A stretch of 64,000 nt of DNA, taken from positions 10,396 to 74,395 of IMG/VR virus record IMGVR_UViG_3300037245_001837; one strand, written 5' to 3'. Within the stretch, counting starts at the first letter, position 1, and each line of letters starts with the position of its first letter. Below the pieces are notes generated by a model. The model did no database searches. It saw nothing but the letters and a program-made list of their open reading frames with translations, and was not told the DNA's origin. The DNA is from a virus. Made by a program: the position numbers and the translations under genes. This document shows positions 21,118-57,715 of the stretch, piece by piece.

Positions 21118-21444
21118 ATGAAAGACACTAAATTAACTGCTTATGTAAGCGAGAAACACGTATTGGCTTTTGAAATTGGAGAAATCAAAAAAACAAAAAC
21201 AGAAGGAAAGGGAAAAAATAAAGTTGAAGTTCCTATACAGGGAAGCGGAGCTATTATTGTTCCTGAAAACAAAGAAATTGATCCTGTTCGTGTAAACAAT
21301 ATGTTCTTAGCGAAATTCAAACCTGTTAAAGGTGATTTTTACGTTATTGAAGAAGGACAGTACCCAATAATTAAGAAAGCAAAAACTTTTCTGGAAGAAT
21401 ATGCAGAAGTAGCAGAAGTAGAGGAAGTTAAAAAAAAAGACTAA
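21118..21444 (+). CDS. Divergent paralogue of 15865..16140
   Basis: YVSEKHVLAFEI...GAIIVPE...KFKPVKGDFYV aligns with YQSHKKVWALKI...SAMITPE...KHKPQVGGYYV. Confidence 0.7.
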   Translation: MKDTKLTAYVSEKHVLAFEIGEIKKTKTEGKGKNKVEVPIQGSGAIIVPENKEIDPVRVNNMFLAKFKPVKGDFYVIEEGQYPIIKKAKTFLEEYAEVAEVEEVKKKD

Positions 21445-21497: not shown

Positions 21498-21532
21498 AAA
21501 AAGCTTCTCAATTAATTTTGAGAAGCTTTTTT
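21498..21532 (+). terminator. Intrinsic terminator
   Basis: AAAAAGCTTCTCAA-ttaatt-TTGAGAAGCTTTTT. Confidence 0.85.
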
Positions 21533-30023: not shown

Positions 30024-33000
30024 ATGGGAAAGCAACAAAAAAGACCACCGTTAAAATTAGTTGGAGAAGAAAGACCTCCACTTAATTTGATAGGCGTAAA
30101 AAAAAAAGTTGGATTAGAACAGGAAGATACCACATTACCTTTGGAAGTATCTCAATCGGATACATCAATACCTCAATTGGTTGGGTCTTTGGAATCTCAA
30201 ACATCGACTCCAGAAATACCTATTAAAGAACCTGAACCTGAATCTAAAGAAGATGGATTTGGTTCTGAATTATTTAGAAGCCTACAAAAAGGGTCAGCTA
30301 GATTAGGAAGAGATATTGCATCAATTCCAGAACTAGTATTTGATGTATTCGCTGCCCCACAAAATTTCATAGCTGAACAATTTGGAATAGAAAATTTAGC
30401 TACTAATTCCGAAAGACTAAAAACTGATTTAAATATAAAAAACTCCATAAAAGATTATTACGCAGGTGATATAGAAAGATTAAACAAATTATCTGAAGAA
30501 CTTGACAGAAAATATATTGGTGGTATTACTGATAACTTTAAAGCAGGTAATATTGGTGATGGATTTAGAATACTTGGTAATAGTTTAGCTGAATCATTAC
30601 CTTCTACATTATCAATCGCATTTGGAGGTGCAGCTACAAAAGCACCTCAATTATTAGGAGCTGTTACAGCTACATTTGCAGCAGGTAAAAACGCAGAATT
30701 AAAATCAAATCCAGATATAACAAATAATATAAGAGTTTTAAACGCACTTGGAACTGGATTAGCAGAAGGTGTTTTCTCAACAATTGGAACAGGTAGAATT
30801 GGTGTTGCTGCAAAAGAATTAATAGCGAAAGAAGGAGTTGAACAAGGTGCTAAGATTTTAAAGAAAAACTTAATTGATATTTATACAGAACTACTTAAAA
30901 AGTATCCTATACCAACAGCAATGCTTGGTGAAGGTCTGGAAGAATCTACAACTCAAATTACTCAAAATGCCATTGATAAATATACAGGCGTAAGTCCTGA
31001 TATTAATTTAATGCAGGGTGTATCAGATGCTTTTATTTTAGGTGTTGGTTCTGGTGGAGCATTTGGTACTGCATTAGAAGGAATAAAAAAAATATCAAAA
31101 GAAAAAACAACAAAAGAAGATGTTGAAGTTGTTGAAAGTTCAATTGAAAAAAGAAATGTTTTAGAAGAGGAACTTAATCAGCAAATTAAAGAAGGTGAAA
31201 TACCAAATCAATTAGCTTCTGAAACAATTGCTAATTTTGATGAGATCAGAAAGCAATTACAAGCAATTCCAAAAGATTATACTTCTGATGAAAAGGCAAT
31301 TGCCATTGATTTATTAAAAGAGAGAGCAATTATTGAAAGTGAAATGGAAGGACTTGACGAGAGCCTTTTAGGTATTAGAATATCGCAAATTGCAGAAATA
31401 AATGAAGAACTTAGAAATATTAAAAAACCACAAGTAGAATCTACTGTATTGGAACAAACAACTGAATTTGCAAATGAATTAGGTACTCCTGAAGATATTT
31501 CAGATACAGTTGCAGGAGCTACTAGCGTAAAAGTTGGTGATACAGAGATAATACTAAAGTCAGAAGGTGATAATATTGTTTTAGAGAGTATTCGTACCGA
31601 TGAAGATAAAAAAGGTCAAGGAAGCGCTAGAAATGCCTTAGATAAAATAACAGAAGTTGCAGATGCCCAAGTTAAAACTATCGAATTAAAAGTTGTTCCA
31701 GAAACAGATTCCACAACGGAAGAAGGATTAATAAGTCTTTATGAGAGTGTTGGATTTGTAAAAGACGGAAATAAAATGGTTCGTGAACCAAAAACAGAAG
31801 ATACATTTTCTAATATTGATAAAGTTATAGATGAAACAACTACTGAAACTACCCAAGAAACAGAAGTCGATGAAGTTCTTTCTGAACAAAATAAAAAAGC
31901 TCAAGAGCAAAAAGAAACAACCGAAGTAACAAAAGTTGCTAAAGATGTTAGATCATTATACAATATACACAGAGATTTATTCGAGTTAGACAGAGTTAAA
32001 TCTTTCGCAAGTGCAACAGTAACCGATAGGATTATTACCACTATGGCAAAAAGGCAAGGTATTAGTAAAGCAGAAATGTATGCTAAAATTGATTTTAAAA
32101 AAGGAGATTCCAATACAATTGACAAACTAAATAAAAAAGGAAAAGCTTTATTCCAAATAGTAGGTGAAAATGCTTTATTAAAGGAGCAGTATAAAAATAA
32201 CCTGCAATTAGCGAAAGAACTAGATGGAGAAGGAAAAACATCTGAAGAAATTTGGTTCAGTACAGGTTGGGAAAAAGGTACTGATGGTAAATGGAAAACT
32301 GAAATTGATGATTCTAAAATGGAATTAGATGGTGATCTTATAAATTTACGACAATATAACCTTAGTGAAGCTATAAAATATGATGCTTTATTTGAAGCAT
32401 ATCCTGAATTAAAAGATATTAAAATTTCTTTTTCGCACAGATTAGGGAATCTGTTAGGTGTTTATATGCATGACAGAAATCGAATTGTTATTAACAGTGA
32501 ATTAAGCGTGAAAGAAACACGATCTACATTACTGCATGAAATACAACATGCCGTACAGAAGAAAGAGGGTTTCGCTGCGGGTGGATCAGCCGTTATAGCA
32601 TCTAACTACTTAAATCAAAAAATACGTGCTATATCACTATCTAAAAATTTACCAACAGGACTTATTAGAGTAGCTAAGAAACTAAATAAAAAAATGTTTG
32701 AAGGTGTTGATATAAACGCTACAAAACAAGAATTTACAAAAGAAGTAGAAAAAGCGAAAGGTCAATTAAGTAAAGAAGAATTTGAACTATATAGTAGTAT
32801 CGCAGGTGAAGTAGAGGCAACAAACGTAGAGACACGTATGGATTTGACAGCCGAACAAAGAAGGACAACACCACTATCTCAAACAGAAGATATAGCAAGA
32901 GAAGAGCAGATAGTGTTATTCCAAAAATCACAAGGAGCGATGTTAGTAGAGGACGGTAAATTTATTATTTACGCACTAACAAATCCAAATGTATCTACAC

Positions 33001-37751: not shown

Positions 37752-38087
37752 ATGGATACGGATTACAAAAAAAGATTAAAACGACACATCAAAGCGTTGG
37801 ATACCGCTTATGAAAATATAATAACAATTTTAGAAGAGGATGTTAAAAAGGAGTCTAAAAAAGAGGGGGAAGATGAAAAAATAGCTCTAAAAGATGATAA
37901 AATTAAGACCTATGCAGATGGGTTGGAGAAGGCTGCTAAAACAGCAAATTACCTTTTAACTGAAATTAAAACTAAACAAGAAGAGCTAGATTTATTGAAT
38001 AAACCTAAAAAAAATTCTAAACAAGTAGAAGATGAAGAAGTTATCGAAACTACTCAAGATCATCAATTAGAAAAACACTTAGAATAA
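37752..38087 (+). CDS. Putative terminase small subunit
   Basis: 111-aa helical protein translationally coupled to large terminase. Confidence 0.55.
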   Translation: MDTDYKKRLKRHIKALDTAYENIITILEEDVKKESKKEGEDEKIALKDDKIKTYADGLEKAAKTANYLLTEIKTKQEELDLLNKPKKNSKQVEDEEVIETTQDHQLEKHLE

Positions 38088-40363
38088 TGGAAAATAGAGA
38101 TCGTAGCTACAGGGGAGATATTGCCGAAAAACTAAATATTTTTGATCTAGTTCCAAAAGTTATTTACAACAAAAGAAACGCTGATAAAAGTTGGAAGTAT
38201 AAAAAATATCCAGATATTGACCCTAATTTTATTTGCGTATCAAAAGACGGTACAATTGGAAATATTTATAAAGTTGGAGAGCTTATTATAGCAGTTCCAT
38301 CTCAAGAAGGAAAAGAAATTTTAAATATAGATACTCCTTCAAATGAAGCTAAATGGAAAAGAACACCAATACCAGAAGGTTTTCTAAAACTTGAAGAAAA
38401 TTACAGAAAAGACATTGGAGAATCTGCAAACCATAAAAAAAGAGATGTACGACAAAAATACAAAACAGACCGTAAAAATCTTATTTCAAAACATATCAAA
38501 TTTATAGATAATGAATTCGATAAAAGAAAACACGGTTTATTTATAAAAATTGATGAAGAAATTCTATACTTAACTGGAAGTGCGTATATGTTTTTAAACT
38601 ACTACTATCTTACCGATAGTGATATGTATCCATTATTCAGAACAACATCATTATACACTTGGCTACATTGGGAGGCAGTAAAAGCCGATAAAGATGTTTT
38701 TGGTGAGCTAAGATTTAAAAGTAGGCGTGTTGCTTGGACTTCTGAAGCTGCTAGTGAAGCTCTAAACACAGTAACTATTTTAAAATACGCTAATATTCCA
38801 GTAGTTTCAGAACGTAAAGAATTAGCCGAAGAATTATTCCAATCAAAAATAATTGACTCTTTTAAATATTACCCTACTTATTTCAAACCAATAATAAGTG
38901 ACCCTAATACTTTAGAAAAAAAGAAGCTTGAATTAACGCATAATACGGCTCAAAAAGAAACTGCAAGGATAAAACTATACCCAACAAAAGTAACAGCCTA
39001 TGATAGTACTAGGGTTAAGTCATTCGCTATTAACGATGAGGTTTTTAAACTTGAAGATGTAGATTTCACAGCATTTAGATCAAGGCATAAAAGATGTTAT
39101 AATAAAAGTAAAAATTTACACCCTAAAGGAAAGTTTGGTTCAACTGTTGGAGATAAAAATATAAACACAGAAACAGCAAGATACGAATGGGAAAATGCAA
39201 ATCCTTTAAAAAGAGATTTAACAGGAAATACAAATACAGGTCTAATCGCATTATTTGTAGATAATTGCTATACTGATGCTGAAAATGGGATGTTTGACGG
39301 ATGGGGTTATCCAATTATTAACAACCCACAAAAACCAATTCTAAATGAAATTGGAGATATTGTTGAATTTGGTTCTATTACATTATGGAAAATGGAAGAG
39401 GATAAAATGAAAAAAATGAAAAAAAGCGATTTAAATTCATTTTATAGAAACAGTCCAAGATTAATTGAACACGCTCTAAGAAATGAAGGAGGGATAAATA
39501 ATGATTTCGATGCAGATAATTTAAATAATCACGTTGACCATTTAAATTCAATTCACGAATTAGATTGGACTGATATAATTTATAGAGGTAATTTAGCTTG
39601 GACAGGTGAGCCTTATAAATCTGATGTGGAGTGGAAGCCAAACACTAAAGGTAAAATATTCACAACTTGGCTACCACCTAAAGAACTCCAAAATAAATCA
39701 TCAATTAGAGAGTTTCATGGTAAACAATTAAAAATGCCTGATAATAATCATATAGCCTGTTTAGGAGTAGATAGTTATGATTTAGTTGGTAAAGCTGCTA
39801 GTGGAAAGGGTTCTGACGGTGCTTTTACAGGATACTCTAAAATGAGTATGACAGGATGCCCTAGTCACTCATTCTTTTTAAAATATAAAGATCGCCCAGA
39901 CAAAAGAGATGATTTTTATGATGATGTCATAATGACTTGTCAATACTTTGGTATTTTCGCCTTAATTGAAAGTAACAAAGGTCGTATTTTAGAGTATATG
40001 TACGATAAAGGATTTACAGGATATGCTATGAGAAGGCAAGATAAAAAATGGAGAGATTTATCAGATGCAGAAAGATTATATGGTGGAATGCCAACATCAA
40101 AAGAGGTTATTGCTGACCAAGCTAGTTTATTGAAGGATTACATCATGGATAATGTTGGTCAAAATTTAGATAATGAATGTAAAGTATATTTCAAAGACTT
40201 AATTACAGAGTGGATTGCATTTAAAGTTGATAAAAGAACTGAATTTGATTTAGCTGTTGCTAGTGGATTTGCTATTATGGGAAGTCAGTACAAAGTTAAG
40301 ATGAGAAAAGTTCCACCCATAAACCCAGAAGGTGGATTAACGTTATCTTCATTCGGAGCTTAA
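38087..40363 (+). CDS. terL: Terminase large subunit
   Basis: YLTGSAYMFL, KSRR, INDE, FGST, GVDSYD, IESNK, FDLAVASG (crAss-like terminase motifs). Confidence 0.88.
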   Translation: MENRDRSYRGDIAEKLNIFDLVPKVIYNKRNADKSWKYKKYPDIDPNFICVSKDGTIGNIYKVGELIIAVPSQEGKEILNIDTPSNEAKWKRTPIPEGFLKLEENYRKDIGESANHKKRDVRQKYKTDRKNLISKHIKFIDNEFDKRKHGLFIKIDEEILYLTGSAYMFLNYYYLTDSDMYPLFRTTSLYTWLHWEAVKADKDVFGELRFKSRRVAWTSEAASEALNTVTILKYANIPVVSERKELAEELFQSKIIDSFKYYPTYFKPIISDPNTLEKKKLELTHNTAQKETARIKLYPTKVTAYDSTRVKSFAINDEVFKLEDVDFTAFRSRHKRCYNKSKNLHPKGKFGSTVGDKNINTETARYEWENANPLKRDLTGNTNTGLIALFVDNCYTDAENGMFDGWGYPIINNPQKPILNEIGDIVEFGSITLWKMEEDKMKKMKKSDLNSFYRNSPRLIEHALRNEGGINNDFDADNLNNHVDHLNSIHELDWTDIIYRGNLAWTGEPYKSDVEWKPNTKGKIFTTWLPPKELQNKSSIREFHGKQLKMPDNNHIACLGVDSYDLVGKAASGKGSDGAFTGYSKMSMTGCPSHSFFLKYKDRPDKRDDFYDDVIMTCQYFGIFALIESNKGRILEYMYDKGFTGYAMRRQDKKWRDLSDAERLYGGMPTSKEVIADQASLLKDYIMDNVGQNLDNECKVYFKDLITEWIAFKVDKRTEFDLAVASGFAIMGSQYKVKMRKVPPINPEGGLTLSSFGA

Positions 40364-40425: not shown

Positions 40426-42819
40426 ATGAGTGATTTAACACCTACATTTCCAGATGATTTTGCCAGTAATGCGGAAAAAAGCAGCTTGGAATACGGAAGA
40501 AAAATTGGTGAAGCTATTGATGTTCAATGGTTTAACAATCAGCTATCAAATAGAAGAATTTGGATAGATGAAATGAGAAGTTATTCAAGAGGTGAACAAG
40601 ATACTTACCAATATAAGAAAACAATTGAAGGTGAAAAGAAGAATCGAGAAAACAGTAATGCAGGAATTCGCACACATAAAATTGATTATGTTACATTAAA
40701 AATATTACCTTCTTTTAAAGATATTGTCATAAACCCAATTGATGAGGAATTATTTAAACCAAGAGCTGAAGCAATTGATATTTCTGCTGTTAATAAAAAA
40801 AAGGATTTCTTTAAGAAATTAGATAAACAATTTTTCACAAAAGAATTCTCAGACATAATTAATGAAGGTGTAGGTATTAATTTAAACCCTGCTAATGCAC
40901 CAAAGAACGAAAAAGATTTAAATAAAAAAAAGATAGAGTACAAACCTAAAATAGAAATTGCTCAAGAATTAGCTATTGAGAATGTTTTAAAGTTAGAAAA
41001 TTTTGAATCTGTAAAAGATAAAATAAATGAAGATTTATTTGATTTAGGTTTCGGAGTTGGGAGACACTACACAGATTATAATGAGGGTATCAAAATAAAA
41101 TATGTTGATCCTTACAATTATATTCACAATACTTTCCAAACAGATGACGGTAGAGATATTCGTTATCATGGTATTGTTGAAAAAGATACTATTTCAGGGT
41201 TAATAAAATTAGTTGGAGGAATCAGTAAAGAAAATAAAGATGCTTTAAAAAATGGAGCTGTTGGAGTTTATGAAGGTACTGATGCTTATATTGATGAAGA
41301 AGATGGAAGTAGAATGATTGAATATATTAATTTTTCATATTTAATTGGTGAAGAAAAAATATTTAAGAAATTAAGAAAAAATAAATCAACTAAATTAGTT
41401 GATAGATCGAAAGACGGTTATAATCCTGCAAATCCAAATAAAAAATTCACTATTCCTTATCAAGTATGGTATGAAGGTGTTTATGTTCCTTCTGCTAAGA
41501 TAATTCTACAATGGAGAAAGATACCAAATCAAGTTGAAAAAGAAGTAAATAAGCCGATTTCTCCATTTATTATTTATGCTCCAAAAGTTAAAAGATTATC
41601 TGAAAAAGGTAGCGTAAGATTTGATAGTTTAGTTAATAGAGCAAAGCCTATAATTGATGATATTCATAGAGATTGGTTCAAGTTCCAACAATTAAAAATG
41701 GAGCTAAGACCGAATACTACGGAAATAGATGTTGATGCTATTAATGATATAACTTTAAATGGAACTCCTGTTGCTGCACAAGATGTTTTAGATTTATTTT
41801 TTGGAAGAAGTTTATTATTAAAAAGAGGATTAAATGATGATGGAGAAGTATTACCAAGAGCAATTCAAGAAAATGCAGGAGGTATAAATAATACAGCACT
41901 TACTTTTTTATCAGGTGAGTTTGCAAATAACCTTAATAGGTTAAGACAATTATTAGGAATTAATGAAATTCGTGATGGTGCTGCAAAACCAAATAGTAAA
42001 ACTGCTGTTACAGTTCAAAAACTGCTTTTAGCAAGTTCCAATAATCAAACTAGTCATATTGTTAGAGCGAGTTTCCAAATATCACTAAAATTTGCTGAAA
42101 GTATTTCTTATAGATTGTACGATGTACTCACAACACCTGCATTAAAAAATAGATATTTAAGTATTATTGGAAGTAATAATGTTGAATTGTTAGATGAAAT
42201 AAAAGAATTGCCAATGCATAAATTTGGTATTTATTTCGACTTCAAGCCAGATAATGAAGAAAGACTTGCTTTTGAGAATTCATTATTAAACTCTTACAAT
42301 AAAGAAGAAATTGATGTTGCCCAATATAATATAGCCAGACAAATTAGAAATGCAAAAAGTGCTATAAAATATTTAGAAATAATTATTGAAGATAATGCTA
42401 AAATAGAGCAAGAACAAAAAATTCAAAATATTGAAGCACAAGCGAGAGCTAATGCACAACAAAGCGTTTTAACAGAGCAGACCAAACAACAAACGATAAC
42501 TGTTCAATGGGATGTTAAACAGCAAGAAATGTTACTGAAATCTCAAATTGATGAAAGGGCATCTAAACAAGAGGCATTGACAGATGATTTATTAGCTCAA
42601 AGACAACATGAAAGAGATATTGAATTAGAATTTATTAAATCTGGAACAAAAAAAGAAATTGAAGCAGGAAAAGAAATAGCCAGAAAAGATAGGATAGACC
42701 AGACAAGCACAAATACTTCTGCAATAGCAGACCAAAAATTGAACAAGAAGCAACCTATAGATTTTGAGAACAAATTATCAGGTATATTTGAGAATAACGC
42801 ATTACCAATAAATCAATAA
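40426..42819 (+). CDS. Portal protein
   Basis: FP...EK.S.EYG, RSYSRGEQ, YKPKIEIAQE, YVDP, GINEIRDG, FGIYFD motifs; C-terminal coiled coil. Confidence 0.88.
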   Translation: MSDLTPTFPDDFASNAEKSSLEYGRKIGEAIDVQWFNNQLSNRRIWIDEMRSYSRGEQDTYQYKKTIEGEKKNRENSNAGIRTHKIDYVTLKILPSFKDIVINPIDEELFKPRAEAIDISAVNKKKDFFKKLDKQFFTKEFSDIINEGVGINLNPANAPKNEKDLNKKKIEYKPKIEIAQELAIENVLKLENFESVKDKINEDLFDLGFGVGRHYTDYNEGIKIKYVDPYNYIHNTFQTDDGRDIRYHGIVEKDTISGLIKLVGGISKENKDALKNGAVGVYEGTDAYIDEEDGSRMIEYINFSYLIGEEKIFKKLRKNKSTKLVDRSKDGYNPANPNKKFTIPYQVWYEGVYVPSAKIILQWRKIPNQVEKEVNKPISPFIIYAPKVKRLSEKGSVRFDSLVNRAKPIIDDIHRDWFKFQQLKMELRPNTTEIDVDAINDITLNGTPVAAQDVLDLFFGRSLLLKRGLNDDGEVLPRAIQENAGGINNTALTFLSGEFANNLNRLRQLLGINEIRDGAAKPNSKTAVTVQKLLLASSNNQTSHIVRASFQISLKFAESISYRLYDVLTTPALKNRYLSIIGSNNVELLDEIKELPMHKFGIYFDFKPDNEERLAFENSLLNSYNKEEIDVAQYNIARQIRNAKSAIKYLEIIIEDNAKIEQEQKIQNIEAQARANAQQSVLTEQTKQQTITVQWDVKQQEMLLKSQIDERASKQEALTDDLLAQRQHERDIELEFIKSGTKKEIEAGKEIARKDRIDQTSTNTSAIADQKLNKKQPIDFENKLSGIFENNALPINQ

Positions 42820-46443: not shown

Positions 46444-46839
46444 ATGAAAAAATCTAATACGTGTGCAATTCACGATAAAGAAATTAGTGATATTAAAATT
46501 GAATTCAGTGAGTTTAAAACTGAATTCGGTGGATTTAAAGTTACTGTGTCAAAAAAGTTAGATGAATTAATGATATTGGTTAATAAACCTATTTTTAAAG
46601 ATAGCCAAGTAGCAGGAATTGTTATAATGGCAGTTGTTTATACTATTATGGTTATGATGTATCTAACACCTACAAGTGCAAAAGCAGATGCTAATGAAAA
46701 AGATAATTTAAGGCAAGATAAAGAAATTATCAAACAAGAAAAAAAAAGTGCCGAAATAATAACATTGCTTTTAGATATTAAAGAAATTGTTGATAAAAAT
46801 GAAGGAGCAAAAGAAGCTGAAGCTAAAATTAAACAATAA
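46444..46839 (+). CDS. Membrane protein, possible holin/antiholin
   Basis: Single TM flanked by coiled coils, in lysis cluster. Confidence 0.5.
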   Translation: MKKSNTCAIHDKEISDIKIEFSEFKTEFGGFKVTVSKKLDELMILVNKPIFKDSQVAGIVIMAVVYTIMVMMYLTPTSAKADANEKDNLRQDKEIIKQEKKSAEIITLLLDIKEIVDKNEGAKEAEAKIKQ

Positions 46840-57511: not shown

Positions 57512-57715
57512 ATGGATAAAAACAAAAAAAAAGGAGACATAGTTCTCAGTAAAAAAGAGCAAGAGCAGATCAAAAACATGAGGGATGCAGAGAAGAAGAG
57601 ACAAGATTGTATCAATGAGATACAAGATGTTCTGATTAAGTACAGTTCAGAGATCAGGGTGAACCCTAATTCTCCACTTGGAAACCCATCAGTTATGATT
57701 GTTCTAAAAGATTAA
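57512..57715 (+). CDS. Hypothetical protein
   Basis: ORF track. Confidence 0.6.
   Translation: MDKNKKKGDIVLSKKEQEQIKNMRDAEKKRQDCINEIQDVLIKYSSEIRVNPNSPLGNPSVMIVLKD

Follow-up and report, generated by a model that had tools for sequence, protein, structure and literature searches.

A probable programmed -1 slip site at the 5' end of a predicted giant virion protein gene in uncultured marine crAss-like phages

The 64,000-nucleotide (nt) stretch of DNA analyzed here (i.e., the window) comes from the IMG/VR virus record IMGVR_UViG_3300037245_001837, which is complete at 74,395 bp and has terminal repeats. It contains a giant open reading frame (ORF), near the 5' end of which a run of ten adenines (A10) gives access, one base back, to a second ORF that has no start codon of its own (Table 1). 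On the basis of comparisons among related sequences, we consider it likely that selection maintains the A10 run at 30098-30107 as a programmed site of -1 recoding and that the hidden ORF encodes the tail of a mini-protein. The gene would thus very probably make a second, unannotated protein of approximately 67 residues in addition to the giant one.

Table 1. Features of the giant gene and its slip site (positions refer to the window)
Feature	Position	Strand	Remarks
Giant zero-frame ORF, 2571 amino acids	30024..37739	+	ORF list, translation; sits between the muzzle gene and the terminase
N-terminal module common to both products, codons 1-25	30024..30097	+	Translation; two short RPPL-x-L-x-G repeats
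TAA shutting the -1 frame 4 codons upstream of the run	30083..30085	+	No ATG/GTG/TTG between this TAA and the run
A10 slip site, GTA AAA AAA AAA G	30098..30107	+	Sole run of at least 10 A in the window
Hidden -1 ORF, 39 codons plus TAA	30107..30226	+	Cationic, aromatic/Gly-rich
Conserved N-terminal domain of the giant protein, residues 73-469	30240..31430	+	Bait for relatives, with the -1 frame ignored

A preliminary description of the window had claimed a slippage site at this place, and the sequence agrees with it in detail. Counted from the ATG at 30024, codon 25 is GTA (30096-98), codons 26 to 28 are AAA AAA AAA, and codon 29 is GTT; within A10, the heptamer A_AAA_AAA is present twice in the zero-frame register. 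The -1 frame from 30107 runs for 39 sense codons to a TAA at 30224-26, as had been stated, and it holds two divergent copies of the family motif presented below (i.e., ..ITFGSISIGY.. and ..SIGWVFGIS..), while the +1 frame stops after 2 codons. The zero-frame codons over the same bases had also been described as rare in the rest of the gene, and counting confirms this: TTG, TCG, GGG, and ACG together make up 6 of the 39 overlap codons versus 27 of the remaining 2532 (Fisher p 7e-6). By itself, however, the window is weak, merely suggestive evidence, because an A10 run is unremarkable where approximately 40% of the bases are A and because the -1 ORF has a P value of only ~0.01. The G+C content is 29.8% and A accounts for 40.5% of the plus strand, so that ~4.5 runs of at least 10 A are expected from the composition of 64 kb (one was seen); the P of ~0.01 is that of a 39-codon open -1 stretch within the giant gene, where the corresponding 46-codon stop-to-stop stretch ranks only third longest of 362. 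In our reading, the significance of the slip site derives from the relatives of the gene.

Relatives were collected independently of the -1 frame. A search with the N-terminal 420 residues returned 37 giant homologues, the closest of which (P0002) is 76% identical, and KKK stands at the same place in 33 of the 38 proteins (37 homologues and the query). The domain formed by residues 73-469 was used as bait as well, and the resulting 56 IMG/VR and 31 metagenome loci provided 72 non-identical N-terminal regions. An unbiased A-run set was defined as the distinct loci with a run of at least 9 A within the first 300 nt (28 loci). The site Lys codons of these 28 loci comprise 101 AAA and 0 AAG, compared with 76% AAA and 24% AAG elsewhere in the same genes, and none of the 87 other KKK triplets in these genes is all-AAA. 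In most cases, the preceding codon ends in A and so brings the run to A10; in L004, the run lies in a different codon register but is still A10. Among the A-run relatives as a whole, whose genomes range from 32 to 50% GC, 70 of 74 runs are A10 (three are A9 and one is A11). What is conserved in the run is its length, not the codons that it forms or their register, as expected of a homopolymer that serves programmed transcriptional slippage. A cold-seep relative retains the run and diverges immediately after it, and aligned contigs show no indel at the window's run (source contig depth, ~480), although consensus contigs cannot show minor variants. In the 1.04 Mb of loci L004-L090, 29 runs of A10 or longer are located at the slip site and 2 elsewhere, versus ~28 expected from composition; T10 runs are represented by a single case in the same sequences. 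A runs of this length are thus nearly absent away from the site, a sign that accidental slippage is strongly selected against in these phages.

The frame entered by a -1 shift is the selected frame in the overlap. It is open for at least 17 codons (range, 17 to 43) after the run in all 28 unbiased loci, against a null derived from random codons of the same genes in which the mean is 6.8 open -1 codons and P(>=17) is 0.098. In the 20 codons after the run, 7 stops occur in the -1 frame versus 71 in a control zone 40 codons further on. The zero-frame codons of the overlap are skewed: TCG represents 38% of the Ser codons (4% elsewhere), ACG 30% of the Thr codons (6%), and TTG 48% of the Leu codons (14%), and G is enriched at third positions (Fisher p 3.5e-11). 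The G's enriched at third positions open invariant glycine codons of the -1 frame. The zero-frame residue after them may be E, D, V, G, or A, a variation that is silent in the -1 frame, and zero-frame swaps between Ser and Leu (TCG/TTG) correspond to Phe/Phe or Ile/Ile in the -1 frame. When each frame is aligned alone, the mean pairwise identity over the 20 codons after the run is 0.24 in the -1 frame, 0.18 in the zero frame, and 0.15 in the +1 frame. The Lys-codon and KKK-triplet counts, the open-frame and codon-skew test, and the per-frame identity and stop counts constitute the unbiased tests. The relatives share a -1 core consisting of a basic residue followed by x-Y-G-[IF]-x-[IF]-G-[RGK]-[WY]-F-[FI]-G, a pattern that matches the -1 frame only and never the zero or +1 frame. 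Within this motif of 12 residues, third codon positions are free and the replacements are conservative (i.e., I/F/L/V, W/Y/F, and R/K).

A motif-led scan of IMG/VR extended the family further. Eighty loci were fetched and the motif was located in 78; in all 78, it lies -1 to a long ORF that starts 50 to 90 codons upstream and runs off the locus. The census set consists of 108 distinct motif-carrying loci and does not include the window, whose peptide is divergent. The slip site is A10 in 70 of the 108 loci, A9 in 3, and A11 in 1. The other loci carry A_AAG (16 loci), G_GGA_AAG (10 loci), A_AAA_AAA (3 loci), U_UUU (2 loci), A_AAU_UUU (1 locus), or A_AAA (1 locus; a mis-located site, probably A_AAG), and one has no recognized site. 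ATG, GTG, or TTG codons between the upstream stop and the motif in the -1 frame were found in none of the 108 loci, and the -1 frame opens 2 or fewer codons before the slip site in 36 of 107 loci. With looser motifs, a slip site together with an aromatic/glycine -1 ORF is seen in ~62 of the 72 unbiased family members. No recognizable slip site or -1 ORF was found in the other ~10 of the 72 (i.e., L027, L028, L029, L030, L033, L037, L040, L057, L058, and L090), which may have lost the site or may use something that the search patterns miss. The nearer relatives of the window (L004, L061, L062, and L063; 39 to 53% domain identity) carry A10 and -1 ORFs of 23 to 43 codons with IGFG..WFIGW-like cores. 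A survey of orthologous giant genes for a conserved poly-A run, an open -1 frame, and suppressed synonymous variation, which the preliminary description had proposed, was therefore positive on all three counts, over more than 100 distinct related loci.

The sequence upstream of the slip site behaves differently. The N-terminal modules of the relatives (25 to 110 amino acids) belong to many unrelated types that occupy the same place in otherwise homologous giant proteins, and most of them are formed by two tandem repeats of 10 to 35 residues (L004-L179). This diversity suggests frequent module exchange at the slip-site boundary; the slip site and the tail are retained.

Two types of signal are found in the family. 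Where a long A run is missing, the heptamer is followed after 6 nt by a hairpin of 9 bp. The G_GGA_AAG, A_AAA_AAA, A_AAU_UUU, and A_AAG sites of the relatives lie in the zero-frame register. In the hairpin alignment (23 loci), 86.5% of the cells are paired, compared with 71% in shuffles and 24 to 45% with a slid partner; changes on both sides were counted in 37 cells (12.7 +/- 3 in shuffles; none of 500 shuffles reached this number), and a compensatory change was observed in 6 of the 9 pairs. The heptamer-type relatives have the organization of a textbook -1 ribosomal frameshift cassette and are best explained by -1 ribosomal frameshifting. Two elements of such a cassette, namely, an in-register heptamer and an open, conserved -1 ORF without its own start, are present in the window, while the third, a structure 5 to 9 nt downstream, is absent from the window and was found only in heptamer-type relatives. 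Among A-run loci, no downstream structure of the hairpin type was detected (23 loci; mean z, -0.5), and the motif begins a median of 3 codons after the run. On the tree of the conserved domain, the signal type changes approximately 10 times, compared with 29 times when the labels are shuffled; the tree (107 sequences; MAFFT and FastTree; midpoint root) carries no support values, and recombination of the 5' cassette could inflate the number of switches.

We propose that most expression would read through the site to produce the 2571-residue protein, which we predict to be a polyvalent virion protein (see below), while a fraction would end one base back at A10 by way of the polymerase, the ribosome, or both. 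In the polymerase route, RNA polymerase would stutter on the run and produce an mRNA with A11; in the ribosome route, tRNA-Lys would re-pair on A_AAA_AAA during translation. In either case, the shifted ribosomes would read the 39 overlapping codons and terminate at the TAA. A base dropped by the polymerase would lead instead to the +1 frame and, in the window, to just two more codons. For the A10 type represented by the window, the sequence is compatible with transcriptional and ribosomal slippage and cannot decide between them. We nevertheless favor polymerase stuttering as the main route in A10 lineages, because a length of ten is held tightly, no stimulator accompanies the run, and A runs are purged elsewhere. 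Tentatively, a mainly transcriptional mechanism seems about as probable as all the other options taken together, a mainly ribosomal mechanism is appreciably less so, and a participation of both accounts for the small remainder; some contribution of tRNA-Lys re-pairing on A_AAA_AAA is expected in any event. At a stretch of nine A or T, slippage by the RNA polymerase of bacteria is efficient (Atkins et al. 2016, PMC5009743).

The predicted mini-protein consists of 28 shared residues followed by 39 residues of the -1 frame (30107-30223), which matches the second product of about 67 residues that had been anticipated. The products predicted for the family range from 67 to 140 residues (median, 90), and that of the window is the shortest. 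In the product of the window, the N-terminal module of the giant protein would be followed by a basic KKK(S/R) cluster and by a tail rich in aromatic residues and glycine, for which a short amphipathic beta-hairpin is predicted in relatives. The -1 tails have charges of +4 to +9 and contain 17 to 38% aromatic residues. They are not hydrophobic enough to form a transmembrane helix (best hydropathy over 19 residues, 1.15 or less), and the Wimley-White interfacial energies of their aromatic 12-mers are -4 to -7.5 kcal/mol. For one transframe-type relative, which belongs to the 13 small proteins presented below (12 aligned sequences), the AlphaFold2 prediction comprises four helices, a linker that is disordered where it covers the KKK, and a beta-hairpin (RYGITF-GR-WFFGFV), one face of which is wholly aromatic/aliphatic; the mean predicted local distance difference test (pLDDT) score of this model is 70, with values of ~70 to 81 over the hairpin. 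The window's -1 peptide modeled alone has a pLDDT of 53 and no defined fold. The earlier suggestion of a membrane beta-hairpin is thus modestly supported, through the relative, as far as the hairpin is concerned, while nothing links this hairpin to a membrane. The preliminary description had suggested, in addition, that the shared N-terminus might be a packaging signal and that the site might set the stoichiometry of the giant protein. The mini-protein has no match in Pfam, PHROGs, PDB sequences, or the ESM Atlas.

A hidden Markov model of the -1 peptides, run against 1.84 billion proteins, retrieved only 13 small proteins (63 to 100 amino acids; P0039-P0051). All 13 have an N-module of the giant type, then a KKK or Cys-rich stretch, and then the C-terminal motif, which is the layout predicted for a transframe product. 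All are singletons from metagenome assemblies, and five of them cross a KKK. In P0041, the one that was checked, a single base is inserted 12 nt after an A7 site; five IMG/VR contigs that are identical apart from this base need a shift. An arrangement with a separate gene for the small protein was considered for these sequences and rejected, given that they are singletons and that the five contigs matching P0041 require a shift; we read the 13 proteins as rare indel variants or assembly errors. Separately, P0039 resembles a deletion that fuses the N-module and the -1 tail.

The site is thus predicted to yield two proteins with the same head, one attached to a cargo of approximately 2500 residues and the other to a cationic aromatic hairpin of 20 to 40 residues. 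Being near the 5' end of a 7.7-kb ORF, it would also divert expression from the giant protein. We consider cooperation with the giant protein, mediated by the N-module that the two have in common, the most likely function of the mini-protein; its cationic aromatic hairpin would bind a membrane interface or a virion partner. A role as a partner or in dosing, in the spirit of lambda gpG/gpGT or dnaX tau/gamma, would be the most economical reading by analogy. A more elaborate proposal, which we offer tentatively and regard as rather doubtful, is that the mini-protein, by way of the shared and often exchanged N-module, co-assembles with the giant ejected protein or shares its docking sites, with the hairpin as an anchor in the virion or at the membrane interface of the host, and that the frequency of slippage sets the number of giant copies per particle. 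Under this proposal, A10 and heptamer plus hairpin would be interchangeable dosage dials, picked according to the host tRNA-Lys set or the transcribing polymerase, and such dosing might be general for the giant polyvalent cargo proteins of uncultured phages.

The genes around the giant ORF are those of a phage structural module. The ORF at 23120-27352 matches the Crassvirus muzzle protein models PF25731 and PF25729 (Pfam), and PHROGs matches identify TerL (38087-40363) and the portal gene (40426-42819). Judged by its muzzle, TerL, and portal genes, the window combines a Crassvirus muzzle protein with a crAss-type structural module, and its gene order appears to be that of a crAss-like phage. 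In the giant protein, Pfam models match an LPD23 domain at residues 714-768 (E 1e-13) and a zincin/SprT-like domain at residues 788-852; matches to DUF6782, SprT-like, and M78 zincin models are also located on this ORF. The giant ORF has the LPD-type domain and the several enzymatic modules in one giant protein that characterize polyvalent proteins. Because it carries an LPD23 domain and a zincin-type peptidase and lies between the muzzle gene and the terminase, we predict that it encodes a polyvalent virion protein of the cargo/ejection type. The domain at residues 73-469 has no relative in Pfam, PHROGs, PDB sequences, the ESM Atlas, or GenBank phages. Several Gly/Ala-rich hydrophobic stretches were observed in this domain, which is kept family-wide.

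A number of observations weigh against a programmed site with a conserved product and temper the interpretation given above. The -1 peptide of the window diverges from the rest of the family and does not match the motif in its strict form, and the 70 nt downstream of its A10 contain no stimulatory structure (fold z, +0.9). The phage is uncultured and has neither a DNA nor a protein match among GenBank phages. A search of sequencing runs found no RNA run that contains the phage, and contigs cannot show minor variants of run length. The +1 frame after the run is also short of stops in many relatives. Counts of entropy and of synonymous and nonsynonymous changes were made on segments picked by the -1 motif pattern and are partly circular. 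In the heptamer-type loci, part of the -1 conservation, i.e., the Cys-rich stretch, is largely a shadow of the RNA stem. Finally, an upstream hairpin that might stimulate slippage is not conserved in A-run loci (mean z, -0.6).

Two candidate elements were rejected in the course of this work. The Cys-rich -1 stretch was considered as a conserved peptide and discarded as mostly stem shadow. The nascent-RNA hairpin upstream of the run was considered as a slippage stimulator; in the window, it is formed by the DNA of the two RPPL repeats (30054-30088; -9.4 kcal/mol; z, -2.4) and ends 9 nt before A10, and similar upstream folds exist in L062 and L063 and not in most A-run loci. It was rejected as weak in these three sequences and not conserved.

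Three other explanations of the locus have to be weighed. The run and the open frame could be a coincidence, in which a conserved KKK is written with AAA, the Lys codon preferred when the genome is AT-rich, and a low-complexity linker happens to leave the -1 frame open. Taken alone, the window would fit this explanation, given that its run is expected by composition and that its -1 stretch is only third longest of 362. The relatives make it extremely improbable: AAG is missing from the 101 site Lys codons against a background of 24%, none of the 87 other KKK triplets is all-AAA, the 28 unbiased loci are all open for at least 17 codons at a P of 0.098 each, the motif is confined to the -1 frame, and rare codons are enriched in the overlap. 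The selection that these counts point to could still act on the shift rather than on its product, in that the site might serve only as an attenuator that aborts a share of the costly translation of a 7.7-kb ORF, the -1 peptide being functionless and its conservation reflecting RNA constraints or a need to keep stops from falling too early or too late. The position of the site at the extreme 5' end would suit such a function, the Cys-rich part of the -1 peptide in heptamer-type relatives is indeed explained by the RNA stem, and no homologue of known function was found. For attenuation, however, a nearby stop would suffice, as the +1 frame of the window offers after 2 codons, whereas the -1 motif of 12 residues is retained across loci of 32 to 50% GC with free third positions and conservative replacements, at the price of rare zero-frame codons, and no structure is conserved over the motif in A-run loci. 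We therefore consider attenuation alone unlikely.

Homopolymers are hypermutable, and the third explanation places the switch in the DNA: through phase variation of A10 by replication slippage, genomes with A11 would encode the mini-protein in frame and turn the giant protein off, so that the two proteins would be made by different genomes of one population. The 13 singleton small proteins, in which a single frame carries both the N-module and the motif (with a KKK spanned in five cases), would fit such a switch, and P0041 has an additional base compared with five IMG/VR contigs that are identical in all other respects. That indel, however, lies 12 nt off the slip site, and the variation in run length among genomes, with the ORF on in some and off in others, that marks a phase-variable gene is not seen across the consensus assemblies examined, in every one of which the giant ORF is in frame (70 of 74 runs are exactly A10). 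Moreover, lineages without a homopolymer reach the same ORF by means of a heptamer and a covarying hairpin, which acts in translation, and a genome without the giant virion protein would be unlikely to be viable alone. Phase variation at the DNA level is accordingly quite unlikely, and a programmed -1 shift during gene expression, with a selected product, remains our preferred explanation of the locus.

Other potential slip sites in the window were recorded in passing. At the start of the giant gene, ATG GGA AAG forms an in-register G_GGA_AAG at codons 1-3 (30026-30032), which is followed by a 20-codon -1 stretch and is probably coincidental. An A9 run at 21430-21438 lies in a V-K-K-K-D context one codon before the stop of the gene at 21118-21444; the -1 frame after it would add 25 codons ending in ..GFFKKLLN, with a stop near 21513, and no homologue of this gene was found in the fetched loci. 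A second A9 run (46739-46747) is inside the ORF at 46444-46839 (GAA AAA AAA AGT), where the off-frame ORFs comprise 11 and 3 codons, and a third (57524-57532) lies shortly downstream of a putative ATG at 57519.

As processes, programmed frameshifting and slippage by RNA polymerase are already well known, while no description of this site, of the hidden ORF, or of the family was found in the literature searched. If the interpretation is correct, it adds a conserved protein that is invisible to gene callers to a large group of uncultured marine crAss-like phages, given that the family comprises more than 100 distinct loci in IMG/VR alone. The family would represent a natural system for exploring when evolution picks polymerase slippage over ribosomal slippage, and one short site would provide a handle on how phages dose very large injected proteins. 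There is also a warning for annotation, since an A10 run in such genes would be neither an assembly error nor the mark of a pseudogene.

The gene can be compared with several known systems. The domain architecture of the polyvalent proteins of phages and conjugative elements was reportedly described by Iyer, Burroughs, Anand, de Souza, and Aravind in 2017. The giant protein resembles these proteins in having LPD23 and zincin-type modules in a single virion-associated protein, and an ORF embedded by frameshifting at the 5' end of such genes was not reported in the literature searched. The slip site of the lambda tail assembly chaperone gpG/gpGT is the heptamer G_GGA_AAG. The lambda system is similar in that a conserved -1 shift occurs in a phage structural module (PMC5009743), and its heptamer is shared by 10 distinct relatives of the window; the two products also have a common N-terminal part, which suggests a fixed ratio of cooperating proteins. 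It differs in that the lambda shift lies near the 3' end and lengthens the protein, whereas the shift predicted here lies near the 5' end and shortens it. Furthermore, the window uses A10 and not a heptamer, and its site occupies codons 25-28 in a gene of 2571 codons that is flanked by the muzzle and terminase genes, as opposed to a small gene between the major tail and tape measure genes.

In potyviruses, P3N-PIPO results from polymerase slippage at GAAAAAA into a short ORF within the polyprotein ORF (PMC5009743). The likeness is close in that a short, conserved ORF without its own start is hidden in a very long ORF, is entered at an A run, is fused to the upstream part of the long protein, and was found by comparative genomics. 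P3N-PIPO, however, is made by an RNA virus of eukaryotes that encodes an RNA-dependent polymerase of its own, and PIPO has ~60 to 115 codons and a known movement function, whereas the present case concerns a double-stranded DNA phage, many relatives of which are likely to shift at the ribosome.

A parallel in the use of signals is dnaX, where one ORF yields a full-length product (tau) and an N-terminal truncated product with a short unique tail (gamma). The Thermus thermophilus gene relies on polymerase slippage at a run of nine, while in the E. coli gene the ribosome shifts at A_AAA_AAG, which is accompanied by a hairpin, and this difference in mechanism may relate to the tRNA-Lys set (PMC5009743). 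dnaX is unrelated to the phage virion gene, and its alternative frame stops after 1 to 2 codons, whereas the alternative frame of the phages extends for 17 to 43 codons, is conserved as a peptide, and is entered at codons 25-28 of 2571. In both systems, different lineages use either a heptamer with a hairpin or a long A run without one for the same outcome, and the approximately 10 replacements between A10 and the cassette that we count within one gene family would parallel the difference between E. coli and Thermus dnaX.

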